Assembly: GCA_040954595.2 (NCBI GenBank) | Contig: CM082587.2 | Location: forward strand, 8,809,403-8,873,402 | Length of the DNA: 64,000 nucleotides | Direction of reading: 5' to 3' | Source: Balanoglossus misakiensis | Taxonomy: Eukaryota > Animalia > Hemichordata | Shown: positions 30,986-61,361 of the stretch, in pieces | How the letters are laid out: each line of letters starts with the position of its first letter | How positions within the stretch are numbered: the stretch's first letter is position 1 | Made by a program: the position numbers and the translations under genes | Notes under the pieces: model-generated | What the model saw: the letters and a program-made list of their open reading frames with translations, nothing else | Told to the model about the DNA's origin: nothing | Database searches by the model: none

Positions 30986-32840
30986 CTTATCACCACCGTT
31001 ATTTGCTTTGTTTATCAATGATTTAGCTGTTGGTTTGAAAAATCTCCAAAAAGGAGTACAGATCGGTGGTGATAATGTGTCTATCTTGTTATATGCTGAT
31101 GACATTGCAGTTATCTCTGATAATGAAGAAAATATGCAGCAAATGTTGGATTTTATTACGGATTGTTGTATAAAGTGGCAACTTCGGATAAATATCAAGA
31201 AATCCCACAGTGTTCATTTTAGAAAAAGCAGATGCTAGAAGTGATTTCATGTTTTATTTGTCAGGAGTGAAAATTGATTATGTTAACAATTGTAAATATC
31301 TCGGGGTTATGTTTGATGAATTTTTAAATTTCAGAATTGACAGTCCTATATGCTCAATGGTGAACCTAGAAATGTTCTTTCCTAGTTTTTATTGCTAATT
31401 TGCATTCATATGGGTCCCTAAAGCAATTTTAGCTTAGTTGCCAAAATGGCAATGTTGGGCAATTCTTCTAATTTGCATAATCAAAACTGGCCGCCAAACA
31501 CATTCTCTAAAACTAAAATTTTGATCATTATGGCTCAAAATTGTGTGTAATATATCATTTTAAGCATTTGCTTCATACGGGCAGCCAAAACAACACAATT
31601 TTATTGTCAAAAAGAGAGTGTCGAACAACTCTACTAATTTGCATAATCAAAAATGGCCGCAAATGCCTTCAAAATTTAAATTTTGCCCTGTTAATCCCAA
31701 AATGGTGTGTTACGCCTCATTTTCAGGATTTTCATTTACATGGGCACCTTAAGCAATTTTGACTTTGTTGCCATGGCAGTATTGGACAACTCTCCTAATT
31801 TTCATATTCCAAAAATGGCCGCCGAATGCCTTTAAAATTACCCTGTTTCTCTCTAAATGATGTGTTATGCCGACTTTTGCGTCATTGTCAGGATTTTCAG
31901 TCACATGTGCATCTAAAACAATTTCGACTTGGGCAGTATATGACAACTCTCCTAATTGGCATAATCCAAAAGTTATTATCAGAATCTGCCAATAGAGCTC
32001 TAGGTTATATTTGTTCTAAATTTAAATCCATCAAGAACATAGAATTTAAGACATTTTCGAAACTTACGACAACTTGTGTTGTTCCAATATGGATTACTGC
32101 TCAGGAGTTTGGGGTTTTAATAATTCCATGAATAGTAATGAGATACAAATAAGGGCTGTTAGATTTTATCTTGGTGTACATAGATTTGCACCTACTGCAA
32201 CCGTGGTCGGAGACACTGACTGGATATCATCAAAAACTATAGGCATTATGTTAACATGGCAACACTTTGGAATAGGTTGGTTTTAAATAATTGGAGTTTT
32301 GAAATGAATGAAATCTTTAATTCTGTAGACATTGATGTACTAGAAAATGGGGGAATTTGTAATATTGATCACTTAAAAGAAAAACTCCATGCTGATACAA
32401 TTGATTCTTGGTCAAACAATACTATTAATATTCCAAAACTGCGTACTTTAATAGACAATCTAAAACGTGGTATGGAAAATAATCATATTTTTCACGTATT
32501 CTGGATCGTAGTAAACGTTCTTTCCTAGCTCTACCCAGACTTGGAATTTTGCCTCTACGAGTTGAAACAGGCAGATTTAGAGGAGAAGCTTTGAATGAAA
32601 GAATTTGTATATTTTGTTCAGAAAATGCAGTGGAAGATGAATTTCACTTTCTTTTGCACTGTATATACTGAATATCGAGAGCATTTATTTGATATTAATA
32701 GCAAGCATTTTACAGAGTTCCAAGATTTATCAGAAATAGAGAAACTAAAACTGCTCCTCAATGAAATGAGTCGAAGCACATCAAAATATATTGCTAAAGC
32801 TTATTGGAAACATCAGTCTATACTCTATGAAGTACGCTGA
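30986..32840 (+). mobile_element. Decayed CR1/L2/Crack-like LINE 3' half, interrupted by an insertion at 31337-31971
   Basis: LSPPLFALFINDL, LLYADD, KYLGV, then after the insertion ANRALG, MDYCSGVWG, FYLGV, LRVETGRF, ERIC.FC...VEDEFHFL. Confidence 0.85.
31337..31971 (+). repeat. ~635-bp block of ~110-bp subunits, highly similar to 35309-35919
   Basis: Both start ttgacagtcctatatgctcaatggtgaacc and share sequence up to ggcataatccaaaa. Confidence 0.85.
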
Positions 32841-32956
32841 CTACCTATACCTTTTTGTCTCCAATTATTGTGCGTTCGATATTTTCAGATACCTGTGTAG
32901 TTTTTACTTCTTTTTGTGTGTGTATCTTGAACAGCAACTCAGATGAGAATGTATTA

Positions 32957-34222
32957 TTAGGTCCCATTGGTATAGGCCTATATACCATGGGACCTTATGG
33001 GATGGGTTGCGTCTGTATGTATGTATGGATGGATGGATGGATGGATGGATGGATGTATGTCTGTATGTCCGTCCACATCAAAAACTTGAAAACCGCTGCG
33101 CGTATCACCTCAATATTTGGTGTGTAGGTGCAGGCAGGGCTGTAGATGGGAGTTTGTCCAAACGAAGTTGCCAGGCCCAAAAATATGCAAATTAGCTTGT
33201 AAAATGTGAAATTTATCAAAACTCAACAATTAATGGTCAGATTGCTTTGAAAATTGGTATGCATGTACCTTATGTCAACCTCACACCGACCTGTAAGTGT
33301 TAAGTTGATATCATGGATGTTTTATTTTTTATGAATTTTTTAGTCTTTTTATTAAATTTATACCTTTACTTATACCTCTATGGTTAAGCTATGTCCACGT
33401 CTTATTGTGGAATTCTGGTCTGTGCAATAGTCCTGTACAGTGACTGTCTAGTGAGCACAATGGGGCCAAAATAAAAGGCAAATTTTTGGGCTCACCTGTA
33501 ACACCTGCTTAACACATTTATTATGTGCATACCTAATTCCGGGCTAACTAATAGGGCTATAGGTTTGGTTTTTGTTGAACATGGACCAGTATAGGGTCAA
33601 AATTTCTTGCCCAAATTTTGCATGACCTCAGGTGACCTTTGACCTACTTTTCCATATCTTGGCATCCAGAGCAGGTACAGACTTGGCGTTTGGAGGGTTG
33701 GGACTAAAATTGAAAAGCCAAAATTGGGGGTCACCTGTGACACCTGCATATCTCATTAATTATGTGCATACCTAATTCCAGGCTAACCAATAAGGCTGTA
33801 GGTTTGGTTTTTATTGAATATGGACCAGTATAAGGTCAAAATTTCTTGCCCAAATTTTGCATGACCTCAGGTGACCTTTGACCTACTTTATCATATCTTG
33901 GCATCCAGAGCAGGTACAGACTTCGCGTTTGGAGGGTTGGGACTAAAATTGAAAAGCCAAAATTGGGGTTCACCTGTGACACCTGCATATCTCATTAATT
34001 ATGTGCATACCTAATTCCAGGCTAACCAATAGGTCTATAGGTTTGGTTTTTGTTGAACATGGACCAGTATAGGGTCAAAATTTCTTGCCCAAATTTGGCA
34101 TGATCTCAGGTGACCTTTGACCTACTTTTCCATATCTTTGCATCCTGGGCAGATATGCTTATTGCTATGTTGCTATGTGCTATGTCCTCAAATGGGACCA
34201 CAGTGTCCTTGACGCTATTTTT
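32957..34222 (+). mobile_element. Complete Helentron-associated element (HINE) with a ~239-bp tandem core array
   Basis: 5' ggtcccat...atgggacc inverted repeat (32960-32994), then a (TGTA/TGGA)n microsatellite and core units at ~33494, 33732 and 33971. The 3' end has subTIR atgggacc (34192-34199), hairpin agtgtc-ctt-gacgct and a T-run. Confidence 0.8.
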
Positions 34223-35308
34223 ATTTAAAGTGACTAATCAGCCCGTTGTGGCTTGGTGTATTGCACTAGTCACTATAATAAATATTATCTATCTATCTAC
34301 AATGGTTACCATTTTTTTCATGTCAGGAACCATTAGATACACCTGCTACATTCAGACTTTGTTCAAAAAATGTTCTTATACATGATTCAACTAATTTCAT
34401 TCACTCACTACAAGTATTGTACAGTTAACATTTTGATGTCATTCAACCAGGCAAATACTCTTTTTAAAACTTTGTCAAAGCCACTGCAGGCATACCTTTA
34501 CTGATATTCCATGTGGCTTCAGTTCATTTTGTCTATCGATCCAATGGAGACTAGGTCATTGGCAATAGCTTCTTCTGTAAATTTGACCACTGATGTCTTG
34601 GCACTATGTTTGTATTGACTAGTTAAATATGATGTTGTTATTTTTTCTGCTTTTTCCCCTCAAGATTGTATGGAAAACATATTTTGCTGGAACCAAGACC
34701 AATACAAACCGACTGCTGAATACTTTAACAAACACTCAAGCATTGAGAGAACAGCAAGGGGCCGGTTCATCAAGCTACCAACTGCAGAACATCACAGAGT
34801 ATCTTTGGAATGAGTTCCTTAAATCATGTGAGAAAGGTATAAACCACACCTCTTGCATCAATTGGCTACTATTGGACTAACAATGGACTAGCCAAGTGTT
34901 GTCAGAGGTGGTTCAAATGTTTGTGGACCTGAAATGTCTGCCCCGTAACAAAGCTGTTGAGAGTGATGTGAATACAGAACTGTATCAGGGCCGGGTCTGA
35001 TTTTTGTTGTTTCAATGTACACACAATTATGCCTGCCGTAGCGCTAGCTGAACCACATTGGAAAAAAAAAAACAATATTGTTGACAGAAATAAATGATTT
35101 TGGCTTTTTACACATGAATAACACTGATTCAACTAAATATCTGTGAACTACCAAAATACCACACACTCCCGAACTGATATCACACCACATTTTGAGTGTG
35201 CAAAAACAGGGTGACTGACATGCACAAGCCCACAAAAAGAGACAATCACAATTTACAGTGGACTGTGTCATCGATGATGACTTGTTTGTTGAGTACCTAA
35301 TAGTTGAG

Positions 35309-36125
35309 TTGACAGTCCTATATGCTCAATGGTGAACCTAGAAATGTTCTTTCCTAGTTTTTATTGCTAATTTGCATTCATATGGGTCCCTAAAGCAATT
35401 TTAGCTTAGTTGCCAGAATGGCAATGTTGGGCAATTCTTCTAATTTGCATAATCAAAACTGGCCGCCAAACACATTCTCTAAAAGTAAAATATATCATTT
35501 TAAGGATTTGCTTCATATGGGCATTTAAAACAAAACAATTTTATTGTCAAAAAGAGAGTGTCAAACAACTCTACTAATTTGCATAATCAAAAATGGCCGC
35601 AAATGCCTTCAAAATTTAAATTTTGCCCTGTTAATCCCAAAATGGTGTGTTACGCCTCATTTTCAGGATTTTCATTTACATGGGCACCTTAAGCAATTTT
35701 GACTTTGTTGCCATGGCAGTATTGGACAACTCTCCTAATTTTCATATTTCAAAAATGGCCGCCGAATGCCTTTAAAATTAACATTTTACCCTGTTTCTCT
35801 CTAAATGATGTGTTATGCCGACTTATGTGTCATTTTCAGGATTTTCAGTCACATGTGCATCTAAAACAATTTCGACTTGGGCAGTATATGACAACTCTCC
35901 TAATTGGCATAATCCAAAATTCCTTAAAATTTAAATTTAAATTTTGCCATTTGTCTCAAAATGATGTGGTATGTCTCATTTTCATGATTTTCAATTATAT
36001 GTGTATCTTAAACAATTTCGACTTGGTTACCATGACAGTATTGGCAACCCTTCTAATTAGCATAACTCAAAATGGCTGCCAAACATCTTTTCGGGAATGT
36101 AATTTTGCCCTTCTTGTCCCAGGAT
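35309..36125 (+). repeat. Tandem array of ~110-bp degenerate subunits (HINE-type core repeat)
   Basis: Recurrent caattt...ttg...atg.cagta...caactct.ctaatt.gcataatcaaaatggccgc. Confidence 0.8.
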
Positions 36126-37779: not shown

Positions 37780-38957
37780 AATATGGCTGCCGCTAACAAT
37801 AGACATGCAGCAGTGTAGGGAACTATACCAATTCTTATACTTGTACCTCTATAGTAAGGCTATGGCCACCTGGGATTTGGGATTCATGCCCAATATCTCA
37901 AAATCTGCCAGGCTGATCAAGTTCAAATTTGTGTGCAGGTAGCCTACCTTCCACCGACAATCGTTTTCAGCAAAAAAAAAATAATATGAAAAATCGACCG
38001 ATTTTTTTATATTAATTGTTTTAATGAAATTTGTACCTACACTTATACCTCTATTGTTAAGCTATGTTCACATCTTATTGTGGAACTCAAGTCTGTGCAA
38101 TGGTCCTGTACAGTGACTATCTATTGGCAAGTAAGCAGCATGGGACCAAAATAAAAAGGTTTATTTCGGGGTCACCCGTAACACCTGCTTAACTCACTGA
38201 TTATGTGCATACCGAATTCCAGGCGAACCAATAGGGCTGGAATTTTGGTTTTTGTTAGACCTGGACCAGTATGGGGTCAAATTTCTTTTGCCCAAATTTT
38301 AGGTAACCTCAGATGACCTTTGATCTACGTAACTTCCTATATGTTGGCATCAAGAACAGGTACAGCATTGGCGTTTGGAGGGATGGGAGCAAAACGAAAA
38401 GCCAAATTTTGGGGTCACCTGTGACACCTGCTTTATAACTCATTAATTTTGTGCATACCTAATTCTAGGCTAACCAATAGGGCTAGAGGTTCGCTTTTGT
38501 TGAACATGGACCAGTATGGGGTCAAAAATTCTGCTAAGATTTTGGGTGACCTAATGTGACCTTTGACCTACTTTCCCATATCTCGGCATCCAGAGCAGGT
38601 ACAGCCTTGGCATTTGGCGGGATGGGACTAAAATGAAAAGTCAAATTTTGAGATCACCTGACATACACCTGCTTATCTAATAATTATGTGCATACCTAAT
38701 TCCAGGCAAACCAATAGGGCTAGAGCTCTGGTTTTTATTGGACCTGAACCAGTATGTGGTCATTTTTTTTGCCCGAATTTTAGGTGACCTCAGATGACCT
38801 TTGAAATTAATATGACATAAATGCGAATTACTACATAACTTAAGGGCCTACTGACTTTATATTTGGTGAGAATAAGCGCACATATGTACTGGTTACCCTT
38901 ATGTTGCTATGTGCTATTCGGGCTTGGGCCTCGCTATTGCTGCTTGCAGCTATATTT
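37780..38957 (+). mobile_element. Second HINE-type element with the same ~240-bp core array but a different 3' terminus
   Basis: 38035-38916 is homologous to 33360-34185, with core units at ~38173, 38416 and 38654. It ends with hairpin gctgc-tt-gcagc followed by tatattt. The 5' boundary is uncertain. Confidence 0.7.
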
Positions 38958-38981
38958 CTCTCTTCGGTGCTATTGATATTC

Positions 38982-39622
38982 TGTAACGGCCTTGTTGATC
39001 CATTGAATTTGTATACATGTATATCTGTATGTATGTTATACCTGTATCTTATAGTAATTAGTTATTCAATTATTCATATGACGTAATAGTACTTACCTTC
39101 AATTGGTTGATCTTAATTATATGCAAACCACCTGGAAGTTTCATTTGACCAATGAACACAAGCTAATCTGGCACTATGATGTAATTGCTGATATAAAAGG
39201 ACATGGTGCATAAAATTGGTCAGTTCACCTCTGTAGCCAGACCGGCCACACACGTTGGAACTGACATGTATTTGTTCCATTTCAGGTTAGTTTCCTTGTA
39301 CCTTACCTGTTGCTTGAAGCTTTGTATTTTGGTGCATTCTACCGACTCATTTCAGCACAAGTAATTGGTGTCGTTAACTTGCGTCAATTTTCCAATTGTA
39401 TGTCTATATTTTTCACTTGAATGAATTTTGGTGTATTCTGTTGGAGGTGAACTCCCATACATGTGTGTAATTTAGAGTTCACCTCTGTAGCCAGACCGGC
39501 CACACACGTTGGAACTGACATGTATTTGTTCCATTTCAGTTATTAAATGTAAGGCCTATGTCTTTGTTACCCGTAACCTGTTTGGTGTGAATATGTTGGA
39601 ATGAACGGCGACAACCGTGACA
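38982..39622 (+). repeat. 5' LTR of element A
   Basis: tgtaacgg...ccgtgaca; TATAAAA 39192-39198, Inr TCAGTT 39220-39225, ATTAAA 39542-39547. Internal exact 64-bp repeat at 39222-39285 and 39476-39539. Confidence 0.96.
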
Positions 39623-39624
39623 AA

Positions 39625-39643
39625 TGGCGTAGTCGGCAGGATT
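39625..39643 (+). promoter_or_regulatory. Primer binding site complementary to the tRNA-Ser 3' end
   Basis: TGGCGTAGTCGGCAGGATT is the reverse complement of AATCCTGCCGACTACGCCA, the metazoan tRNA-Ser 3' terminus. It lies 2 nt after the LTR. Confidence 0.92.
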
Positions 39644-40709
39644 TGGCAATTCCTACGCAAGTTCTTGTTTCGGGACGGAGAGGATGATACTGACAAGTGC
39701 CATGTTTTAACTGGTCAGAAGTGTCTGGACAACGGACAACGCCCAACCAGGTGTGTCTTTCGCTGAGCTGGACGTCCTTGGGGAGCCACCCGGACTGCAG
39801 ACAGACGGGAGCCAGGTCCAAGCGTCAACGGCGAGGAAAATTCTCTGCAGAGTGCCAAGTGGTGAAGTCGCTGAACTGTTACCGGCCGGAACTGTTTAGT
39901 GTGAAGTGTTCATCGCGGTATACAAGGTATTGTGTGTCCAGAACTTGACAGTGTTATTCCGTGCGAACTATAGACAGTGCGCATAAATTCCGTCCGTGGC
40001 GCATAGTTTCCATCTGTGATAACTTCGGACTTGAACTTGTGGACTGGGTATTTTATTGCAAACGAACTTTCTGGTTATTCGCCGTAGAACCTGGTGTAAC
40101 GTAATGTTTGTAAATTTTTCTTAGAAATTTCAATATTGTCTATATAATGCAATGTGGTCAAAGTAGTTTTGACTTTGATTTAATTGTTGAAGTGGGCTCC
40201 ATGTGGATATAAACCCCTGTTTTGTTGCCTTTAGCCTGCTTTAAACGAAAAAAATATATATATATAAATTTTATTTTCTTTCAACAGTATATTTTGGTTA
40301 AGTGCTGAAGTATAATTTTCTTTGTAAATTTCAGTTCATTATTTTCCAAACGACGTGGAAAAAAAAAATTGTCAGCACTTGTTGAAAAAAAAAAATATTA
40401 AGTTATAAGTTAAATATTGTATATTGACTTGAGTTAGTTTATTATTGTATTAGTTATTTAGTTGTTTCATTATTATTGAGACTGTCCATGAATGGTCGTA
40501 TTCATCCAAATCATACATTAGTCTCTATAGAACCTTTGGCAGTGTCTGTAAGCTATTCTATGCTTATTTCATTCCCTGTTAACGTATGTGCTATGCCAGT
40601 AGATACTGATATTATTGTTAAGATTTTCCAGTGAAATAGCTTGCATTGCATTGTATTTAACGACACGTCAGAGTCCTCCCAAATTGCCTTTCATTTTCTG
40701 GGGAAAAGA

Positions 40710-42134
40710 ATGGCTGTGTCCAAAATATCAATTCAAGAGCGAAGCATTTATGTGCAACACTTGCCTTTTGAATGTACAAAGAAACATTTTAGAGAATTTA
40801 TCGAGTTACAGCTTGGTTTGGCCCAGGTTGATCAAATTTATATTTCTGATAAAGATTCCGCTTTTGTCATATTTGAGAATATAGAATCAGCCACAGCCGC
40901 TCTGCCAGTAATACATAAAAGCACTTTTGAAGAAAGCAAATTACGGGCAAGTCGTGTGACCACAGCCCGAGGGTTGGAACTGTGGCATTTAATTGAGGAA
41001 ACCGAACAAAGTACTGGCCTAGATTACAATGAAACCAGTGATCCCAAGACATCCAAACCCAAAGCAGATGTACAGGAAATTATTAACATGTTGAGTTTAC
41101 TGTCTGAAGCAGATAGGAAAGCGGTTGCACAGGCCATATCACCTGCTCCACTGAAACCAATCGTATCAACCCCTATGCCACAGCCGATTCCATTTCCAGC
41201 ATTTCCAGTACCAACTTCAGTTGCAGATTCTTCACCATTTATTATGTCTTCACCTGCCCAAGCAGCTGCTGCACAGCCAGCCAGAGCCACTACTGCTTTT
41301 CACTCGGTGGAATTCCCAAGAATAGTCGTCTTCTCTGGCAAAGGTGATGTCACTTATGAAATGTGGCGATATGAAGTTCGAGCACTACAGAGGGAGAATG
41401 TGTTTCCGGAGACCATAATTATGCAGGCTGTTCGGAAATCCCTACGAGCGTCCGCTGCTGAAGTCCTACTACATATGGGAGAAGACATCACAGTGTCCCG
41501 ATTGATGGCGAAGATGGACATGGTCTTTGGGAAAGTATTGCCACCGGAAGCAGTTTTGGAAAAATTCTATACAGCACGACAAACGAAGACAGAAAAGGTA
41601 GCAGAATGGGCCTGTCGCATCGAAGGACTTTTGGATGAACTCAGATCAGGTCAGTCCATCTCTAGTAATTCAGAAGAAACCATGCTTCGAACCAAATTCT
41701 TTTCTGGCCTGTCAGATGAGCACATTAAGAATGCAATCAGACACCGATATGATACAGGAGAAGATTATTCAGGATTGTTGCTAGCCGCAAGAAAGTTTGA
41801 AGTAAATAGGGAGACCACTACCAGGGTTCACCAAGCAACTGTTGCTGACAAGACGATGATAACCAAATTGGAGGAACTTACCAAAGGTCTGAAGAACTTA
41901 GCTGAGAAGGTTGCTGAACTAGAGAAGCGAACTTCAACATCATCAACTCCAGAGTCTACTTTTCGCCGACATGTCAACAATGAAAATGGCCGGGATCGGC
42001 GTGGCAACGATGGAACTCGCCAACCCAAACAAGTTTTCCCAGGCAACTGCTTCAAGTGTGGTGAACATGGACACAAAAAGACAGACTGTCCTTTAAATGG
42101 GGAGCGACCAGGCATCCGGAGGGACATGCGCTAG
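40710..42134 (+). CDS. gag: Gag: N-terminal RRM-like domain, PNMA-like capsid, coiled coil, CCHC zinc knuckle
   Basis: The ORF is open from 40641 and the first ATG is at 40710. Motifs: IYVQHL (RNP2-like), DSAFVIF (RNP1-like), FSG...YEMWRYEV, CFKCGEHGHKKTDC. Confidence 0.92.
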   Translation: MAVSKISIQERSIYVQHLPFECTKKHFREFIELQLGLAQVDQIYISDKDSAFVIFENIESATAALPVIHKSTFEESKLRASRVTTARGLELWHLIEETEQSTGLDYNETSDPKTSKPKADVQEIINMLSLLSEADRKAVAQAISPAPLKPIVSTPMPQPIPFPAFPVPTSVADSSPFIMSSPAQAAAAQPARATTAFHSVEFPRIVVFSGKGDVTYEMWRYEVRALQRENVFPETIIMQAVRKSLRASAAEVLLHMGEDITVSRLMAKMDMVFGKVLPPEAVLEKFYTARQTKTEKVAEWACRIEGLLDELRSGQSISSNSEETMLRTKFFSGLSDEHIKNAIRHRYDTGEDYSGLLLAARKFEVNRETTTRVHQATVADKTMITKLEELTKGLKNLAEKVAELEKRTSTSSTPESTFRRHVNNENGRDRRGNDGTRQPKQVFPGNCFKCGEHGHKKTDCPLNGERPGIRRDMR

Positions 42135-42156
42135 GTCGGAACGGTAACAGTCCCTC
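42092..42156 (+). promoter_or_regulatory. Programmed -1 ribosomal frameshift signal (T TTA AAT plus predicted pseudoknot)
   Basis: The heptamer at 42092-42098 is in gag phase, and the -1 frame is stop-free into pol. After a 6-nt spacer, stem 1 is 42105-42115/42126-42138 and stem 2 is gagggac 42119-42125/gtccctc 42150-42156. Confidence 0.8.
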
Positions 42157-42202
42157 TAATGTTATTGATTCGTTAATAGGCCACGCCAATGAAACTGAGA
42201 TT

Positions 42203-45200
42203 GTGTTGGAAGGATCCTCGTGTATTGCGCTGATAGACACCGGGTCCATGGTATCTACTGTTGCTGACACTTTTAACAGAGAGAAGCTACAGAAACCAAT
42301 TCATGACCTGAACAACTTGGTGAAGGTAGAAGGGGCTAGTGGTACAGAAGTTCCTTACCTTGGTTATATTGAAGTTGAAGTGAAATTCCCAGATAGCCAT
42401 GGACAAGAGATGTCTAAAGATATATTATTGCTTGTTGTTGAAGACACGGAATATAATCAGATGGTTCCAGTTGTGATAGGCACAAATGTTCTCCAACATT
42501 TTGTGGATGAAGATACACAGTACAATACAGACCTATCCTCAGTATGGAGACTAGCATACCAAGCGACTATGCACCGGCAGAGGGCCGAAGGTAGGACATT
42601 TACAGTTACCACTACTAAACCCACAACCATTGGACCATACGAACGCACAGTCATCCATGGATTTTGCAGAGTGGACCTAAGAAATTGTCAATCAGTAGTT
42701 GTGGTGGAACCAGAAAATGACAGACTTTTACCTGGTGGTTTACTTGTTACTCCAGCCGTGTTGAAGTTAGAGCCTCGTGGTAATTCGTGTCGAATCCCAG
42801 TAATGGTGACCAACTATGGAGCACGTGCTGTCACAGTTCCCCCTAAAAGCACCCTATGTAACATGAACTTAGCATCTAATGTCTCACAGCCTTTAGATCC
42901 ATATGGAGATGATATTGATACAAACTCAGATGGGACCACCTCACCAAAAGTACCCGATTGGCTGATAAAAGACCTGGGATTACAAGAGGCAGATACAGAA
43001 TTAACAGAAATCCAGAAAGACCAAGCCTTGGCTACCATTGGTAAATGGCAAACCGTGTTCTCTACAGGTGAGAGAGATTTGGGACACACAACATTGGTAA
43101 CACATTCGATAAAGTTAACGGATGAAACCCCCTTTAAAGATAAATACCGTCGAATCCCTATGGGTATGTACGAAGAATTGCAACAGTACCTGCAAGATAT
43201 GCTACAGAGTGGTGTGATTAGAGAATCAAACAGCCCGTGGTCCTCAAATGTTGTATGTGTCAGAAAACCTGATGGGAAGCTGAGGGTGTGTATTGATTAT
43301 AGACGTCTCAACGCCAAAACCATTAAAGACGCTTACGCATTACCCCGGGTATTGGATACGCTTGATAACCTTAGTAACGCCGAGTGGTTTTCATCGCTTG
43401 ATCTACGGTCTGGATATTACCAAGTAGAGATGGCGGAAGACGACAAAGCGAAGACAGCTTTCACGGTGGGAAACTTCGGCTTATTTGAATTCAACCGTAT
43501 GTCTATGGGTCTGACCAACGCACCTGCAACTTTCCAGCGTCTCATGGAGAAGTGTTTTGGAGAATTGGCGTTCAGAGAATGTTGTGTGTATTTAGATGAC
43601 ATCATAGTATTTTCGAAGACTTTTGAAGACCACCTCAATAGATTGGAGCGGGTATTCCAGCGGCTGGCATCACATGGATTAAAGTTGAAGGCAACGAAAT
43701 GTGTTTTATTCCAGAAGAAGGTGAAATATCTTGGACACGTGGTATCAGCCGACGGAATTACAACGGACCCAGACAAGGTAGCAGCTCTGAAGGAATGGCC
43801 AATACCCACTACTGTAACAGAACTGAGAAGATTTCTTGGATTTGCAGGGTATTACAGGAGATTTATCCAAAGCTACAGTAATATTGCCAAGCCACTTAAC
43901 GACTTGCTGTGTGGACGTCAGTCAAGGAATAAGGCGGGAAAATTTGAAAAACTCCAGTGGGGACAACAGGAACAACAAGCTTTCGACACTCTGAGGAAGA
44001 GCCTAATGTCGTCACCAATACTAGCCTTTGCTGACTACTCACTTCCATTTGAAATACATACTGATGCAAGTTCCACATGTCTGGGAGCAGTGCTGTATCA
44101 ACGCCAGAAAGGTATTCTCAGAGTAATTGCCTATGCAAGTAGAGGAATCACCAAGTCTGAAAGTAATTATCCAGCTCATAAATTAGAATTTTTGGCACTG
44201 AAATGGGCCGTCACCAAGAAGTTCAACGACTACCTGTATGGAAGCAAATTCACTGTGTTTACAGACAACAACCCTTTGACGTATGTGTTAACTTCTGCGA
44301 AACTGGATGCGGTGGGACACAGATGGTTGTCAGACTTGTCATTGTACGACTTCTCTATTGTTTACCGGAGTGGTAAGAAGAATATAGAGGCTGACGCTTT
44401 GTCTAGGATTCCATGGAATAGAGAGAATCCAGAGACGGAAACCAATCTGGGAGCCGATGTAGTCCAGGCGCTTTGTCGAGCAACAGAAGGTCCATACGTA
44501 ACTTCATTCGGAATGGTAGCAGATGAGGACAGACCTGCAGTAGTTCAAGGTGGGGATGATGTGTTCTGGAAGACGGAGCAGTCCAAAGATTCAATAATAC
44601 GGTATGTGACTGATCAGCTTGAAAAGGACCACAAACCACTTATGAGAGATCATACAGGAGATATCAGACTACTTATACGAGATTGGAAACGCCTTGTTCT
44701 GAAGAATGGAGTCCTATACAGGAAATGCTTCATCGATGATATACAATATTTGCAACTTGTCTTACCAGTACACCATAGAAAAGATGTCCTGGAGGAACTA
44801 CATGATAAACTTGGACACTTTGGCCAAGATAAAACCCTGGATCTGGTACGACGAAGATTCTACTGGCCTAGGATGTCGATGGATGTTCAAAAGAAAGTGG
44901 AACATTGTTTACCATGCATTCGCAGGAAAAGTTCAACTTCCTTACCCAGAACTCCCTTGGTTAATATTCACACATCACAACCGATGGAAATGGTGTGCAT
45001 CGACTTTCTCCATATACCAACACCAGATCAAGGATATAGCAACATATTAGTGATGACGGACCATTTCACTCGATACGCTATAGCAGTACCTACAAAGAAC
45101 CAGTCTGCCAAAACAACTGCCAAAGCATTGTTTGAACATTTGATTTTGCATTATGGGTTCCCAGGACGATTACACAGTGACCAGGGGCGAAACTTTGAGT

Positions 45201-46351
45201 CGTCTACAATTCAGGAACTTTGCCGAATAGCAAATATTAAGAAGTCCAGGACCACTCCATACCACCCCCAGGGAAATGGAATGTGCGAACGATTTAATAA
45301 GACGTTATTACAGATGCTGGGAACTATGAATGAAGACAACAAAACAAGATGGGCTTCACATGTCAATACGATGGTTCATGCCTATAATTCTACAAAGCAT
45401 GAAAGCACCGGATATTCACCTTTCTTTTTGATGTTTGGTCGTGAACCAAGACTGCCTATAGATGTATCTGGACATGCAGACCAGACCAACCTAGAATATG
45501 GTGGAACAGTTTCAGATTATGTGACGAAACTTGCCGAACGGTTGGATTACGCCTATAAAGTAGCAACGGAACGGTCTGTTAAGTCTGGTGAACGGCAGAA
45601 GAAGTCATATGATAGAAAAGTGAAGGTGGCCATAATACAACCTGGTGATACTGTGTTGGTGAAGAATACAGGACCTAAAGACAATTACAAATTGGCAGAC
45701 CAATGGGAAAAGGATCCATATACAGTGATTTCACAGCCCATAGAAGACATTCCAGTATACGTGGTACAAAAACAAGTTAAGGGTGGAAGGAAGCGGACAC
45801 TACATAGAAATTTGCTACTCCCAATACCAATAATTCCGGACGAACTGGATGACGATGTTAACACCAAGATGACGCAGCGTGATGTTAAGCAGAGTGTACC
45901 GGGTGTTATCAACAATGCTACCCAGGATGCAGTGGACGAAGAGGATGACGGCATTGGTAAATTGCAATTCGTGTCAACTATCAACTTGCCAACAGAACAC
46001 AATGCTCTTAATCCTACTGCTGCAGAATTCATCCCATCCAGAAGAGAAAGTTCCCTGATGGACAACCCCACAAGTATGGTTAATCCGGATGGACCTTCTC
46101 AAGTACTTACCTCAGATTTCTCGAATCATATTTTGCAAAGTACGGATGGTTGGTCATCGAGCGATCCAGATGGTATCACTCCTGCTACAACCAACATCAG
46201 TCCTGACTCCAGTAGTAGTACTCAACCTGAACCACGCTATCCTACACGACAGAGACGACCTCCAGATAGATATAGTCCCGAACAATGGAATCTAAAACAG
46301 TTTGCTCATACGACTTTATCGTCTATACCATTTATTAATTGCCACTATTAA
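42203..46351 (+). CDS. pol: Pol polyprotein (protease, RT, RNase H, integrase), probably made as Gag-Pol by -1 frameshift
   Basis: LIDTGS, YLDD, TDAS, H-x4-H...C-x2-C, IDF/SDQG/ERFN. The ORF is uninterrupted for 1382 aa and the frame stays open back to 42098. Confidence 0.96.
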   Translation: MLEGSSCIALIDTGSMVSTVADTFNREKLQKPIHDLNNLVKVEGASGTEVPYLGYIEVEVKFPDSHGQEMSKDILLLVVEDTEYNQMVPVVIGTNVLQHFVDEDTQYNTDLSSVWRLAYQATMHRQRAEGRTFTVTTTKPTTIGPYERTVIHGFCRVDLRNCQSVVVVEPENDRLLPGGLLVTPAVLKLEPRGNSCRIPVMVTNYGARAVTVPPKSTLCNMNLASNVSQPLDPYGDDIDTNSDGTTSPKVPDWLIKDLGLQEADTELTEIQKDQALATIGKWQTVFSTGERDLGHTTLVTHSIKLTDETPFKDKYRRIPMGMYEELQQYLQDMLQSGVIRESNSPWSSNVVCVRKPDGKLRVCIDYRRLNAKTIKDAYALPRVLDTLDNLSNAEWFSSLDLRSGYYQVEMAEDDKAKTAFTVGNFGLFEFNRMSMGLTNAPATFQRLMEKCFGELAFRECCVYLDDIIVFSKTFEDHLNRLERVFQRLASHGLKLKATKCVLFQKKVKYLGHVVSADGITTDPDKVAALKEWPIPTTVTELRRFLGFAGYYRRFIQSYSNIAKPLNDLLCGRQSRNKAGKFEKLQWGQQEQQAFDTLRKSLMSSPILAFADYSLPFEIHTDASSTCLGAVLYQRQKGILRVIAYASRGITKSESNYPAHKLEFLALKWAVTKKFNDYLYGSKFTVFTDNNPLTYVLTSAKLDAVGHRWLSDLSLYDFSIVYRSGKKNIEADALSRIPWNRENPETETNLGADVVQALCRATEGPYVTSFGMVADEDRPAVVQGGDDVFWKTEQSKDSIIRYVTDQLEKDHKPLMRDHTGDIRLLIRDWKRLVLKNGVLYRKCFIDDIQYLQLVLPVHHRKDVLEELHDKLGHFGQDKTLDLVRRRFYWPRMSMDVQKKVEHCLPCIRRKSSTSLPRTPLVNIHTSQPMEMVCIDFLHIPTPDQGYSNILVMTDHFTRYAIAVPTKNQSAKTTAKALFEHLILHYGFPGRLHSDQGRNFESSTIQELCRIANIKKSRTTPYHPQGNGMCERFNKTLLQMLGTMNEDNKTRWASHVNTMVHAYNSTKHESTGYSPFFLMFGREPRLPIDVSGHADQTNLEYGGTVSDYVTKLAERLDYAYKVATERSVKSGERQKKSYDRKVKVAIIQPGDTVLVKNTGPKDNYKLADQWEKDPYTVISQPIEDIPVYVVQKQVKGGRKRTLHRNLLLPIPIIPDELDDDVNTKMTQRDVKQSVPGVINNATQDAVDEEDDGIGKLQFVSTINLPTEHNALNPTAAEFIPSRRESSLMDNPTSMVNPDGPSQVLTSDFSNHILQSTDGWSSSDPDGITPATTNISPDSSSSTQPEPRYPTRQRRPPDRYSPEQWNLKQFAHTTLSSIPFINCHY

Positions 46352-46410
46352 TCAAATATCTTTAACTTACTTTAAATGACGAGGACGCCATTTCTCCTCG
46401 CAGGGGTGCG

Positions 46411-47051
46411 TGTAACGGCCTTGTTGATCCATTGAATTTGTATACATGTATATCTGTATGTATGTTATACCTGTATCTTATAGTAATTAGTTATTCAATT
46501 ATTCATATGACGTAATAGTACTTACCTTCAATTGGTTGATCTTAATTATATGCAAACCACCTGGAAGTTTCATTTGACCAATGAACACAAGCTAATCTGG
46601 CACTATGATGTAATTGCTGATATAAAAGGACATGGTGCATAAAATTGGTCAGTTCACCTCTGTAGCCAGACCGGCCACACACGTTGGAACTGACATGTAT
46701 TTGTTCCATTTCAGGTTAGTTTCCTTGTACCTTACCTGTTGCTTGAAGCTTTGTATTTTGGTGCATTCTACCGACTCATTTCAGCACAAGTAATTGGTGT
46801 CGTTAACTTGCGTCAATTTTCCAATTGTATGTCTATATTTTTCACTTGAATGAATTTTGGTGTATTCTGTTGGAGGTGAACTCCCATACATGTGTGTAAT
46901 TTAGAGTTCACCTCTGTAGCCAGACCGGCCACACACGTTGGAACTGACATGTATTTGTTCCATTTCAGTTATTAAATGTAAGGCCTATGTCTTTGTTACC
47001 CGTAACCTGTTTGGTGTGAATATGTTGGAATGAACGGCGACAACCGTGACA
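46411..47051 (+). repeat. 3' LTR of element A
   Basis: Identical by eye to 38982-39622. The 64-bp repeats are at 46651-46714 and 46905-46968. It is preceded by a short atypical purine tract, aggggtgcg. Confidence 0.96.
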
Positions 47052-48113
47052 ATTCTATTGTAATTCTAGTTCCAAATGATGTCACACTTTCTCGATTTTT
47101 GTCAAACTGATGACGGGCTGCAATATTCGCTTCTCCAACTTTCGGCCCATAGTCCTCTATCAGTCTTAGCCCGCGTGATATTGTCTTCTTTTACACGAGA
47201 TTACTCATTTGTTCTCTGACTGTATCTGTTGGCCTTGTTTTATCTTCATTCTACCAAATTTAATAAAATTTTCTTTGTCGAAGGTGCGTGTTTGACTTTC
47301 ATCGTAAAACTCGCATTTTCATGAAATGAGTGGAGAACTCTGACCACAATCAAACCGGCTGTTTCGTTCCTTGTCACAGTTTGAACTCTTGGCCTTTAAT
47401 ATAGTCAATTAGAAAGGGAGTAGTATGGTTAGCACTGTTATTTGTTATTGCGGATATCGTTGAATAAATATACAAGCGCTCAACAACAACGATAAATACC
47501 CAAATGCGCCACCCCCTTATCATCGTACCATATTTAGATGCAAATATTCAAGGATAGATGTTATCATGCTGTGCGCATCATCGCCATATTACACATATAC
47601 GAGTCTGTTCAAAACAATTGGTTTGATGGTGCACAGGTTGGTAATAGGATTATGATTCCAAAGATGAAGGTTATACCTCAAAAGGGCGACTTCAAGTGTG
47701 CAAATTTATAGACAAATTGTAATTTAGCACTTCATCATAACAGTTGCTTTCAACATAACTAATGCTAAAAGTTTATCAGCAGAATGTCAACAGAGATCAA
47801 TTATACACTCCATCGATCGATGATGTAAAGCTACTTGCACAATGTCAATCGTATGGGGTCACACAGGGACCATTAAGACGGTTCTGAAACGTCACAAATC
47901 AACTACTGGCAGAAATTATTATGTGTGAACGGTTTAAGTGGTCATGAAACATCTCAGATTTGAGACGGCTTTCCCGGCCAGACCTGAGCCGGTGTAAGGA
48001 TTAAGACCTCTGCGCAACCCATTGTCTATGGCACCGAGCCTCAGCGCCTATACAACTTTGTGTGTGTGGCTCCATCTTTACAAAAGGCAAATAGTGTCTC
48101 TGAACCGTCTCTA

Positions 48114-54022: not shown

Positions 54023-54553
54023 TGTTACGATCTGTATAAAGGTCAAATACGATTTCAAGGGTTAATTAATCCAGAGCTCGGGAATGTCAATGTTTGATAG
54101 TATTTGATTTTATGTATTTGAAGTAGATAGGGAGAGCGGGTGTTTAACTGACTGCTCTGATTCTCAATCATCACCGAACTGACTTTGTTATATAACACTT
54201 TATGTAAATTGGTACGTATAGAGTTGAGTTGATGCCCAATGAAATTGTAACACATTGTATTTGTGATATTTTACATGGTTAACCACGCCTTGAGAAAAGT
54301 AATTATAAGAGAACCTTGTTTCCAAAGTTGGAGAAGAATAATCTAACGGGAGATGGGAGTACCTCAGGCTACTGAGCTCGTTCCCTTCCTCATGTACTTT
54401 ACTGGGCGTATTTGATGTACTATATAATTCCGGACAATAAATGAACGTGAATCAGATACGTGTCTCCGTGGATCACTGTTCTCGTCAGAGCCCGATACCT
54501 CATCGCTACAGATTCCCCGATGCATGAACAATCATGAGAAACCAGCCGTAATA
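54023..54553 (+). repeat. 5' LTR of element B (TG...TA termini)
   Basis: tgttacg...cgtaata; AATAAA at 54436-54441. Confidence 0.95.
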
Positions 54554-54555
54554 CA

Positions 54556-54574
54556 TGGTGGAGATACGTGGGTA
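54556..54574 (+). promoter_or_regulatory. Primer binding site, tRNA-Ala-like
   Basis: TGGTGGAGAT, 2 nt after the LTR, complements ATCTCCACCA of tRNA-Ala. The match is imperfect beyond 10 nt. Confidence 0.75.
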
Positions 54575-54630
54575 GACGAAACAAATCCATCGGAGACAGA
54601 AACGGCGACGTCCAGCGGAAAGATTACAGC

Positions 54631-57600
54631 ATGGATCGCGAGATGCTAAACGACATGAACAGTCAAATATCGGAAATACGACAGGTTACACTCAGAGCTG
54701 GAGGTCAGGTAGGCCCAGGTTTCTTTTCGGGTACAGAGACTGAGAATGCACACCGATGGTGGAAAAAATATATAGACTTTGCTGACTTTAAGCAATGGTC
54801 AGACGAGAAACGGCTTAAAGGAATCGGACTATATTTGACTGGTGAAGCGGAGCGATGGTTCTACAGACTGTCTGCTGAAAAGAAAAATGACTTGACGACA
54901 CTGCAAAATGTCTTCCTCGCTCGTTTTGATAAGTGCGGTCCGATGTGGCTGTATAACGAGAAACTATTTCGCCTGAAGCAACTGCCGGACCAGACTGTTG
55001 AACAATATGCGGAATTAATATGCGAAAAAGCAGAAAAAGCGAAAAAGACTGATGAGGAAATACTATCTTTCTTCATGAACGGACTGAGACCGGACATACT
55101 AAAGTTCGTAGCGGGAATGACACCTAAGGACTTCGAAACAGCGTACAAACATGCTCGAACAGCAGAGGTCGTGGCAGGATTACCAGAGACAGACGAGCCA
55201 GAAGCGGGTCTTTTACAACAAATCTCAACACGGATTGACGAGATGAAACAAGAAGATGAAGAAATGAAGACCAAATCAAGCGCGGCAGATCATCGAGGAC
55301 GATCGACAAAAAGAGAGAAGAAATCGCCGAATTACAGAGCAAGAGAACGAACAATAGACTATAAGGTAAAGAGGAACAGATATAATTTTACTGGGCACTC
55401 TACCCAACGTTTTCCTCGACATAGTCAATTTAATTCCCGTGCATGTTTTAATTGTGGGCGTTACGATCATATAGCTAGAAATTGTTCAAAATATGCGTTC
55501 TCTGGAAATGTTTCGAAGCCTAGTCGGAAATTTTATTTTGATGGATCGTCCGACAGCAGGTCATGTGCAGGTGTAAATGCACTCGGGAAAGAGGGTGCCT
55601 ATAATGTTAAAGATGGTGTAAACTTTGTTAACAAAGATGGGTGTGCTTTTCATGAGAATGTTATTCCAATTTCAATATGTCATGAAAAAGTGACGTCATT
55701 AATTGATACTGGAGCACATATTACTGTAGCTCCTATTCGGTTGTTAGAGCTTATTCCCGCTCTAAAGAATTATCCGATGTTCAAGTCCAGATATAATTGT
55801 GTACATACAGCACACGAAGACAAATTGAAGGTAATTGGATTTATGAAAATACCTGCTTTTATTGGGAATAAGCGTGTATTACTGTATGTTAATTTAGTTG
55901 AGTCTCTTCAGCATAATCTGATTTTGGGACTTGATTTTATGAAGCGTTATAGAGCTGTTATTGATTTCAAGGGTAATATTTTAAGATTACAATCAGACGT
56001 ACCGTTAAGAACAAATGTTGATGTTAACATTTCACCTGGAAGTGAAATGGTTATTCCAGTGAAAGTACCGTATAAATATCTTACTGGAGTTTTAGGTTGT
56101 ATTTGTGATAAACGAACACGCTTAACCCCGGGTATTTTGGTAGCTAAGGGTTTGGCCTATTCGAATAAGAATTTTCTTCCCATGCGAGTTGTAAACACTT
56201 TGGATACTGTGGTCAAAATTAAGAAAAACAGTGTTGTTGGAATGTTTTCGCCCTTGCCCCGTAATAGTGAAATAGTCCCACTCGATAATACTGCCGTTAA
56301 TTGTGTCTCACCTCAAGGGCCCCGTACACAGAAAGAGACGGATTATTTGATGGGTCAATTGAAATTTAATGAATTAGAGATAACTAAGGCACAGCGTAAA
56401 CAGCTTAGAGATGTTTTACTGCACAATATGGAAGCTTTTGTTGATTCTAGTGGTCGTTTAGGCAACTGTGATGTAATCAAACATACAATACGATTACAAG
56501 AGGGTGCTGCCCCGTTCCGTCGCCCACCTTACCGAGTAACGCCTGAGAAAAGGCGTGAACTTGAGCGACAAGTTGATCAGCTGTTAGAACAAAATATTAT
56601 CGAGCCGTCCACTTCACCGTTTGCTAGTCCAGTAGTTTTAGTCAAAAAGCCTGATGGTTCGTGGCGTTTTTGCACAGATTTCCGTCATTTGAATAATATT
56701 ACAGTGCCTGATTCGTTTCCCTTACCTAGAACTGACGAATCTCTTGAAATGTTAGGCAAGAATAAGCCTCAGTATTTTTCGACGCTTGATTTACAGTCAG
56801 GATTTTTTCAATTGGAATTAGATGAAGAGAGCAGACCAAAAACAGCTTTTGTCACACATCAAGGGTTATATCAATACAGGAGACTTGCCCAGGGGTTGCG
56901 AAATAGTCCCAGTTGTTTTCAGCGTACTATGCAACACGTGTTACGCAATATTATGTGGCAATATGTGTTATGTTATATCGATGATATTATTATATTTAGC
57001 AGCTCTTTTGAGGAGCATCTTCAACACATTGATACTGTCCTAACCAGGTTACGTCAAGCTGGATTGAAATTAAAGCCCAGCAAATGTCAATTTATGAGAA
57101 AGAGTGTTAAATTTTTGGGTCATATTATCAGTAAGGATGGAATTGCGGTTGACGAGAGTAAAGTAACAGCTGTTAAAGAATATCCCCGTCCTCATACTGT
57201 CACACAGCTGAAATCATTTTTGGGGTTGGCCAATTATTATAGAAAGTTTATAAAGAATTTCTCGATCATTGCAAGGCCTCTGCATAAATTGTTGGGAAAG
57301 GACACGAAATTTGAATGGAATGATCGATGCGAACATGCATTCGAGAAATTAAAACATGTCCTGTGTCAAGCACCAATTCTAGGGTATCCTGATATGAATG
57401 AAAATTTCACAATTTATACCGATAGTTCCACTCATGCCCTGGGGTTTGTTTTAGCTCAACGACAGAATGGTGTTGAACGAGTGATTTTATATGGGGGTCG
57501 AAGTTTAAACTGTCACGAAAGAAATTACTCAATTACAGAATTGGAAGCTTTGGCCGTCATTCATGCTATCCGACAATGTGATCACTATGTACGGAGCAAC

Positions 57601-59805: not shown

Positions 59806-60817
59806 ATCTATGGACAGAGAAATATATGCGTAACAGAAAAAAACGGAAAAGGGAGACACGTGGTTGAGTGAATTGAAAATGTGAATATGACTGAGAGGTA
59901 TGAGTGTTGGCCGGCCTGTATGAGTGAGTGTACGATTGGCGTGTCCCTTGATTCGTTTAATGTTACGTAAGTTGTCGAATGACATTTTATTATCCGTTGT
60001 TTGCTGAGTTTAGTTGTAAGTGCTGTGCAACCTGGTTCCCGTGTCACTCTGTTTAAATGTGTTTATGTATTTAAGTTGTAAAGAAATTACCAGTGAAGTT
60101 TGAAGTTGCAGAGATTTTAACACTGGAGAAAAATGTTGAGAGTTGAATTTGCCTTTCGTTTGATGACCTAAATATAGATGGTCCAATTTGTGTAAATAGC
60201 CCCTTTTAATGGCTATGTGTTTGTATAAAGAAACCAAAGAAAATCCGATTTTCGAATGAAGAAAATGCCATTTTCGAAGTTGTAAAGAGTGGATTTTTGA
60301 CAAAACGCTAAGATGTTTCAGTTTTAATTTTTTAAAGGTTATTGAATTTGCCCGACATGACGTAACTCGAGAATAAGGAATGTCGGATGATCGTTCGATG
60401 TAAAAGAATGCAAGAGTGTTTCTTTTGAGTCAATAAGACAACATATATTTAGATTGTGTTCAATGATGGATACAACGTTTTATGGGTTTACAGAAGGAGT
60501 TGCGATTTTATTGTTTATATTAGTAGGTGGATAGGTGTGCGAAGGTTTTATGTGCACATACTATTTTAAGTTTATATGTACTTTTATTCTGTAGTAATTT
60601 TTGGATTGTAATTTTATATATTTTTAAGACGATCACTTCATAGACATGACTAGATTTTTTTTTCAAATATTTTACTTCAATTTTGTTATATATATTGTAC
60701 TCTTACATTTCAAAATCATACGGTACATCTTAATATACTCTTGGGATGGAACTGAACGATTACCCTTGGTGTACTGCTCTTTAAGAGATTTGTGTCCAAT
60801 GCGGGACGCATTGGTTT

Positions 60818-60830
60818 AAAAGGAGGGGAG
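60818..60830 (+). promoter_or_regulatory. Polypurine tract of element B
   Basis: AAAAGGAGGGGAG immediately precedes the 3' LTR. Confidence 0.9.
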
Positions 60831-61361
60831 TGTTACGATCTGTATAAAGGTCAAATACGATTTCAAGGGTTAATTAATCCAGAGCTCGGGAATGTCAATG
60901 TTTGATAGTATTTGATTTTATGTATTTGAAGTAGATAGGGAGAGCGGGTGTTTAACTGACTGCTCTGATTCTCAATCATCACCGAACTGACTTTGTTATA
61001 TAACACTTTATGTAAATTGGTACGTATAGAGTTGAGTTGATGCCCAATGAAATTGTAACACATTGTATTTGTGATATTTTACATGGTTAACCACGCCTTG
61101 AGAAAAGTAATTATAAGAGAACCTTGTTTCCAAAGTTGGAGAAGAATAATCTAACGGGAGATGGGAGTACCTCAGGCTACTGAGCTCGTTCCCTTCCTCA
61201 TGTACTTTACTGGGCGTATTTGATGTACTATATAATTCCGGACAATAAATGAACGTGAATCAGATACGTGTCTCCGTGGATCACTGTTCTCGTCAGAGCC
61301 CGATACCTCATCGCTACAGATTCCCCGATGCATGAACAATCATGAGAAACCAGCCGTAATA
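60831..61361 (+). repeat. 3' LTR of element B
   Basis: Same sequence as 54023-54553 (offset 6808). The same 66-aa minus-strand ORF appears in both LTRs in the ORF track. Confidence 0.95.

Follow-up and report, generated by a model that had tools for sequence, protein, structure and literature searches.

A Ty3/Gypsy element of Balanoglossus misakiensis with an exact repeat between start-site and splice-donor motifs in its LTRs: a candidate for an intron renewed at strand transfer

The window, the whole stretch of 64,000 nucleotides analysed here (Balanoglossus misakiensis contig CM082587.2, positions 8,809,403 to 8,873,402), contains a young, intact Ty3/Gypsy element that is ordinary apart from the layout of its LTRs. 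These span 38982-39622 and 46411-47051 (641 bp each), show 0 differences, begin and end with TG...CA and lie within a 4-bp target duplication, ATTC. The features of the element are listed in window coordinates, with the kind of evidence in brackets.

38978..38981, no strand: left target-site duplication, ATTC (sequence)
38982..39622, + strand: 5' LTR, 641 bp, TG...CA, identical to the 3' LTR (sequence comparison)
39192..39198, + strand: TATA box, 30 nt ahead of copy 1 (motif; a sister family with another U3 has it at an equal distance)
39222..39285, + strand: copy 1, predicted exon 1, from the initiator TC[A]GTT to CAG, its end doubling as a putative 3' splice site (predicted function)
39286..39539, + strand: predicted 254-nt intron, GT...AG, made up of the 190-nt spacer 39286-39475 and copy 2 (blind splice-pair scan)
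39476..39539, + strand: copy 2, with branch-like CTGAC at 39515-39519, pyrimidine tract and CAG, and a G just before it; predicted landing site of strong-stop DNA (sequence)
39542..39547, + strand: ATTAAA, predicted poly(A) signal (motif)
39625..39642, + strand: primer-binding site, starting with TGG (sequence)
40710..42134, + strand: gag, with a weak N-terminal RRM, a PNMA-like capsid region and a CCHC knuckle; frame open from 40635 (ORF and profiles)
42065..46351, + strand: pol, in the -1 frame and uninterrupted, with protease motif DTGS, RT, RNase H and integrase (ORF and profiles)
46400..46410, + strand: short purine-rich stretch ahead of the 3' LTR, PPT-like (sequence)
46411..47051, + strand: 3' LTR, with copy 1 at 46651-46714, the predicted intron at 46715-46968 and copy 2 at 46905-46968 (sequence)
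47052..47055, no strand: right target-site duplication, ATTC (sequence)

The domains of Pol follow the order protease-RT-RNase H-integrase (DTGS at residue 58, RT at 399-559, RNase H at 632-761 and integrase at 901-1118), and Gag gave PNMA and zf-CCHC profile matches over the cut-off. The primer-binding site is presumably of the tRNA-Ser type. There is no third ORF (env) between the pol stop at 46351 and the start of the 3' LTR at 46411, indicating that the element is not of the errantivirus type, and its DDE integrase and true LTRs set it apart from Penelope-like elements, which combine an RT with a GIY-YIG endonuclease and have pseudo-LTRs. The heptamer TTTAAAT at 42092-42098, in the gag/pol overlap, fits a -1 frameshift site and may act as one. 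An additional intron, in the leader, may use the acceptor-like TTTTCCAG at 40620-40631, 79 nt upstream of the gag ATG. The element is flanked by two satellite-like families, whose periods are ~239 and ~160 nt (33445-34204, 38125-38804 and 31334-36083), and the window holds a second intact-looking Gypsy element at 54023-61361, with a single 1755-aa ORF that includes a chromodomain and with identical LTRs of ~530 bp, which lack an internal repeat and whose shared stretch does not end in CA.

Both LTRs of the first element carry an exact internal repeat of 64 bp, at 39222-39285 and 39476-39539 and again at 46651-46714 and 46905-46968, which cannot be extended at either side. Across 30 shuffles of the 641-bp LTR, the longest exact match between two segments reached 11 nt, and the LTR of the second Gypsy element has none beyond 9 nt. 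An earlier reading, made from the sequence alone, had pointed out this repeat and a series of motifs around it, all of which are in place: TATAAAA at 39192, 30 nt ahead of copy 1, TCAGT at 39220, GTTAGT at 39286, CTGAC at both 39261 and 39515, and ATTAAA at 39542. The 3' edge of the repeat falls at CAG/GT, and the predicted intron that starts there (39286-39539, 254 nt) shows, as judged with weight matrices, the U2-type signals, namely a GT donor, a branch-like motif, a pyrimidine tract and YAG. Its donor has a T at +3 and scores 3.9 bits, near the bottom of the range for the set (3.6-7.4). In a blind scan covering 700 nt ahead of the primer-binding site, the ends of this 254-nt intron nevertheless formed the best-scoring donor/acceptor pair (p=0.04 against 100 shuffles). 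A shorter intron of 190 nt, ending at the AG just ahead of copy 2, is disfavoured, as this AG is not the top-scoring acceptor and occurs in only the window and L033 among 10 elements. RNA runs X7 and X13, picked by species label, yielded 0 reads and have no bearing on splicing either way.

Relatives were collected with an alignment of the window Pol and 34 matches as the query, which gave 112 loci, 32 from genome contigs and 80 from metagenomes; a search of viral contigs produced 29 pattern matches and 0 relatives. All 112 loci were compared with themselves, 14 candidates were read in context, 40 primer-site candidates were scanned and further LTRs were read, most of the loci being without a readable LTR. 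Related Pol proteins are ~41-51% identical to that of the window, with fish, amphibians and host DNA in bivalve-symbiont assemblies as named sources, and the RT of the nearest relative is 66% identical. The layout of the window element recurs in ten other families among these loci, with repeats of 104 nt (L001), 90 nt (L002), 88 nt (L033), 74 nt (L038), 101 nt (L047), 99 nt (L050), 64 nt (L054), 90 nt (L074, on a contig broken at the repeat) and 76 nt (L085), and with a copy 2 cut after 55 nt in L093; the repeat periods lie between 206 and 666 nt. An LTR could be read in about 22 in-clade relatives, of which 10 have the repeat and 12 lack it. One of four genomes matched, and the genome behind L001 held no further copy beyond the locus itself. 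Close repeats of another kind, tandem-like or diverged and without the pattern, were set aside in L008, L014, L030, L052, L080, L105, L025, L059 and L100. Self-comparison also gave close repeats in L101-L104 and a second one in L047.

Within an element, copy 1 and copy 2 are 0.96-1.00 identical across the window and the ten families, values that short-read assembly could have raised in some relatives by evening out close repeats. Between families, the copies resemble each other about as little as shuffled sequence does (mean identity 0.53 vs 0.50 for shuffles). The 3' edge of the repeat lies at CAG/GT in all ten elements in which it is visible (the window, L001, L002, L033, L038, L047, L050, L054, L074 and L085), the frequency of CAGGT in these regions being 0.0017 per position; identity continues one G past this edge in L033 and L085, and L093 is consistent with it, although its copy 2 is lost at the contig end. 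A pyrimidine-rich tract followed by CAG terminates every copy. In L002, the identity of copy 1 to copy 2 (0.956) equals that of copy 1 in one LTR to copy 1 in the other (0.956), which is what copies that were identical at insertion should show. L033 and L085, which are close relatives, share the first 8 bases of their copies, which have otherwise diverged to 0.60, yet each remains internally exact. The expectation of the sequence-only reading that related elements would have identical copies bounded by an initiator and a GT was thus borne out, with near-identical copies, a GT donor in 10/10 and an initiator-like start in 9/10.

The 5' edge, set by exact matching (n=10, L074 being left out because its edge is not visible), differs between the two copies. 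A pyrimidine/purine step marks the start of copy 1 in 9/10 elements (P 3e-5) and that of copy 2 in 1/10; conversely, a G lies directly ahead of copy 2 in 6/10 (P 0.008) and of copy 1 in 1/10. Contigs from runs X1 and X3 all carry one additional C just ahead of copy 2 in comparison with the window, so that their repeat is 65 nt long and starts at the C of TCAGT. The LTR of the window differs from that in X1 at three full-depth positions, one of which sits exactly at the 5' edge of copy 2. The repeat appears in X3 as one collapsed 65-nt contig at double LTR depth, and an X3 contig end (39207) carries a different U3 with TATAAAA at an equal distance from the copy. In HIV-1, about 5% of cycles at a test site acquire a G immediately ahead of R through copying of the cap, and misalignment at transfer leaves 1-3 nt deletions at the U3-R junction (PMC12172438, consulted in part). 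By analogy, the 5' edge of copy 2 appears to carry known marks of a U3/R junction, as expected where strong-stop DNA lands, with the promoter marks at copy 1.

We evaluated whether the spacer resembles an intron with the blind splice-pair scan, using weight matrices on up to 700 nt before the primer site in 9 repeat-bearing LTRs, 12 in-clade LTRs without the repeat and 9 from outside the clade. The groups of L050 and L083 were assigned independently of the tree, and L011 has an uncertain primer site. In 8/9 repeat-bearing LTRs the scan put the predicted donor first, and in 6/9 both predicted sites. Individual values of p <=0.05 were obtained in 5/9 repeat-bearing, 5/12 repeat-free in-clade and 0/9 outside LTRs, and as groups both in-clade sets scored above the outside LTRs (p 2e-4, 9 vs 9, with the repeat; p 0.004 without it). 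An intron-like LTR thus seems characteristic of the lineage, with the repeat as a derived state. Since the 12 repeat-free relatives are intron-like as a group, the repeat is not the sole apparent means of keeping an LTR intron. Repeat-free LTRs with an intron-like GT...AG and an acceptor shortly before AATAAA were seen in L035, L059, L060, L069, L078, L080, L083 and L086, and the short LTR of L094 is apparently intronless.

Run X1 contains a sister subfamily (depth 1418) with a spacer about 90% alike (21 other letters and 4 gaps over ~230 nt), in which the donor and the start of copy 2 are kept. Its contig is unbroken through copy 2, indicating that its copies share no 31-nt identical run, and in X3 the copy 1 found on a sister-type spacer differs at several positions from copy 2 of the X1 sister. 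This sister could be an old solo LTR, or a recombinant with its junction where copy 2 begins, either of which would be harmless to a model of renewal, or a family multiplying with unequal copies, which would speak against it. Depths in X3 were 4.0 for U3, 7.8 for the repeat, 3.8 for the spacer and 4.2 for the tail; low as they are, these ratios suggest that there is little room for intronless LTRs. The contigs showed no joints, which has no bearing on intronless forms because the 64-nt repeat exceeds the assembly word. A 10-base spacer deletion at 39425-39434 is at full depth in X3 and absent from X1, the spacer varying between sources while the copies stay identical.

In a quick RT/RNase H tree, comprising 100 of 114 rows from the fetched loci only, with L050 and L083 omitted for their short RT matches, repeat carriers sit among repeat-free relatives and the repeat needs at least three gains or losses. 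The subclade to which the window belongs (97% support) comprises six rows, of which five have the repeat, L047 included, and the sixth, L043, is unreadable; the repeat recurs in L001/L033/L085 and then again in L074 and in L093. A single origin of the repeat is unsupported by this tree, whose pattern would fit either inheritance with renewal and losses or repeated origin.

Both edges of the repeat are explained most simply if the template of copy 2 was an RNA with its start at copy 1 and a cut at the donor, which points to a spliced 5' end. We propose that, in each LTR, the identical 64-bp copies surround a GT-starting spacer that would function as a cap-proximal spliceosomal intron. The RNA would start at copy 1 and be cut at the donor, leaving a spliced 5' end made of copy 1 joined to the tail, and strong-stop DNA from this end would anneal, on an intron-retaining 3' end, to copy 2 and the tail. 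The daughter LTR would then read U3, copy 1, spacer, copy 2 and tail, with copy 2 rewritten from copy 1. That cDNA of the spliced 5' end lands in this manner on an unspliced 3' end, at copy 2, so that this copy is rewritten and the intron restored, is in our judgement probable. An intronless LTR would result if the cDNA landed on copy 1 or if the 3' end were itself spliced. Recurrent re-templating would suffice, not necessarily in each cycle, as occasional events would also keep the copies alike. This proposal coincides, except for re-templating in every cycle, with that of the sequence-only reading, which gains from the comparative results and from the marks at the edge of copy 2, but which did not foresee that many repeat-free relatives would be intron-like; because these relatives keep such an LTR, renewal is not required for it.

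The proposal presupposes that the 3' intron is retained in at least a fraction of the packaged RNA molecules. The 5' donor has the advantage of lying close to the cap; in addition, copy 1 ends in overlapping acceptor and donor signals, and in the window a foamy-type fold may mask the donor. The predicted masking by U3 is strong in the window (unpaired probability from 0.33 to 0.01) and present in only 4/11 elements, for which reason we rejected it as a general switch; it thus offers no general reason for the 3' intron to escape splicing. Moreover, AATAAA falls within the copy in L002, L038 and L054, leaving little tail for steering the cDNA to copy 2. As to its origin, the layout probably arose in a lineage whose LTRs already carried an intron ahead of the poly(A) signal, where a full-length spliced cDNA, anchored by its tail, would prime one exon length inside the intron; the product would remain spliceable only where exon 1 has an acceptor-like end. 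Splicing near the cap would probably aid export or translation, and U1 at the donor would probably help to silence the 5' poly(A) signal; an escape from HUSH-type silencing, as put forward by the sequence-only reading, is hypothetical. A broader version of the proposal portrays a widespread animal Gypsy lineage whose RNA is spliced at the 5' LTR and unspliced at the 3' LTR, in which the copy of exon 1 is both 3' splice site and strand-transfer target and the intron is regenerated every cycle, the element passing as an intron-bearing host gene; we consider that this version could equally well prove right or wrong.

Alternatively, the intron may be real and the packaged RNA may usually keep it at the 5' end, so that rare spliced strong-stop DNA would mis-land in the 3' intron and duplicate exon 1 once, in families that are young rather than renewed. 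Such repeated recent accidents would explain both edges and the G equally well, and they agree with the patchiness of the repeat on the tree (at least three changes), with the commonness of intron-like LTRs without the repeat and with the possibly unequal copies of the X1 sister subfamily. Nevertheless, we regard them as unlikely, because 10 of about 22 readable in-clade relatives have the repeat, mostly with 0 or 1 difference, which would need many independent and very recent events; because L033 and L085, with their first 8 bases in common, have diverged to 0.60 while each stayed internally exact; and because 5/6 rows in the window's subclade (97% support) share the repeat.

Considerably less plausible is the absence of splicing, with the GT site merely binding U1 to silence the 5' poly(A) signal and with template switching, or selection for a role in strand transfer or RNA pairing, keeping the copies alike. 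The splicing of the window LTR is indeed a prediction from sequence, but this explanation predicts neither the stop of identity at the donor in 10/10 elements nor the acceptor-like tract and CAG at the end of every copy. Template switching between direct repeats would delete the spacer rather than even out the copies, which also counts against it. In its favour, a donor that precedes the poly(A) signal serves foamy viruses in just this way (PMC3694450, from the parts consulted). Finally, it is hardly credible that transcription starts at copy 2, as an ordinary U3/R border with copy 1 a duplication in U3, or that the assembly created the repeat. Any model that places the start of R at copy 2 accommodates the G and the single-base difference at the edge of that copy, but the TATA box and the initiator context lie at copy 1 (9/10 vs 1/10) and reverse transcription has no route for renewing an upstream copy, while the repeat is found in both LTRs, in independent runs (the collapsed 65-nt X3 contig at double depth) and in ten other assemblies.

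Renewal of the intron at strand transfer, as we propose, has partial counterparts in known systems. In engineered split-intron retroviral vectors, a working intron is likewise assembled from LTR parts by reverse transcription; these vectors differ in being artificial and limited to a single round, with the donor placed in U3 and without exon duplication. The element shares its anatomy, tRNA primer site, PR-RT-RH-IN order and homology-based transfer with the canonical Ty3/Gypsy and retroviral scheme of a U3-R-U5 LTR and a first strand transfer through R (PMC12789967, in the sections consulted), whereas here an intron would distinguish the 3' end of the RNA from the 5' end, and strong-stop DNA would land on an internal second copy of exon 1 instead of at the start of R. 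Penelope-like elements also keep a cap-proximal spliceosomal intron through retrotransposition: it is 75 bp long and lies 46 bp after the start, and its deletion abolished reporter protein without lowering RNA, making a benefit for protein plausible here too (PMC2377424, in part). They belong to another order of retroelements, their pseudo-LTRs do not derive from reverse transcription, and the consulted part of that study describes no duplicated exon (PMC2377424). Foamy viruses similarly have a donor near the cap and upstream of the poly(A) signal that is handled differently in the two LTRs, although the same portion of PMC3694450 describes neither a repeat of exon 1 nor a self-contained LTR intron. 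With the HIV-1 U3-R junction, the G just before the transferred sequence and the 1-3 nt deletions are features in common (PMC12172438, likewise in part), but here the marks occur 254 nt beyond the predicted start site, where copy 2 begins.

The LTR layout appears to be new, in an element that is itself an ordinary Gypsy. A literature search that covered largely open-access articles found no prior description of it; the consulted parts of PMC6431247, PMC2678813 and PMC6238403 contain nothing on LTR introns, and the last, in those same parts, gives no diagnostic LTR trait for the named Gypsy clades (Mag A/B/C, MolGy, CsRN1 and others). Introns are expected to be lost upon reverse transcription of spliced RNA, and LTR elements are accordingly thought to be intron-poor. 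If our proposal is correct, the life cycle of LTR elements would include a new step, in which an intron is rebuilt at strand transfer, and it would become clear how a retroelement can obtain the expression or anti-silencing benefits of splicing. The layout would also constitute a record, in DNA alone, of start sites and splice junctions; it predicts a single RNA species without the spacer at its 5' end and with it at its 3' end, and could inform vector design.

The N-terminal RRM of Gag scored just below the cut-off in the window (40746-40943). It was over the cut-off in 4/15 relatives scanned, three of them repeat-bearing (L038, L047 and L050) and one with an unreadable repeat status (L043), and in 0/8 of the scanned relatives without the repeat. 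The carriers belong mostly to one subclade, so kinship may explain the association between RRM and repeat; the domain is a candidate regulator of RNA processing. Lastly, L094 (2-190 and about 479-764) contains a histone-fold ORF fragment (Pfam Histone, E 5e-19), probably H3-like, shortly before the purine tract of its short LTR, suggesting a possible histone capture.
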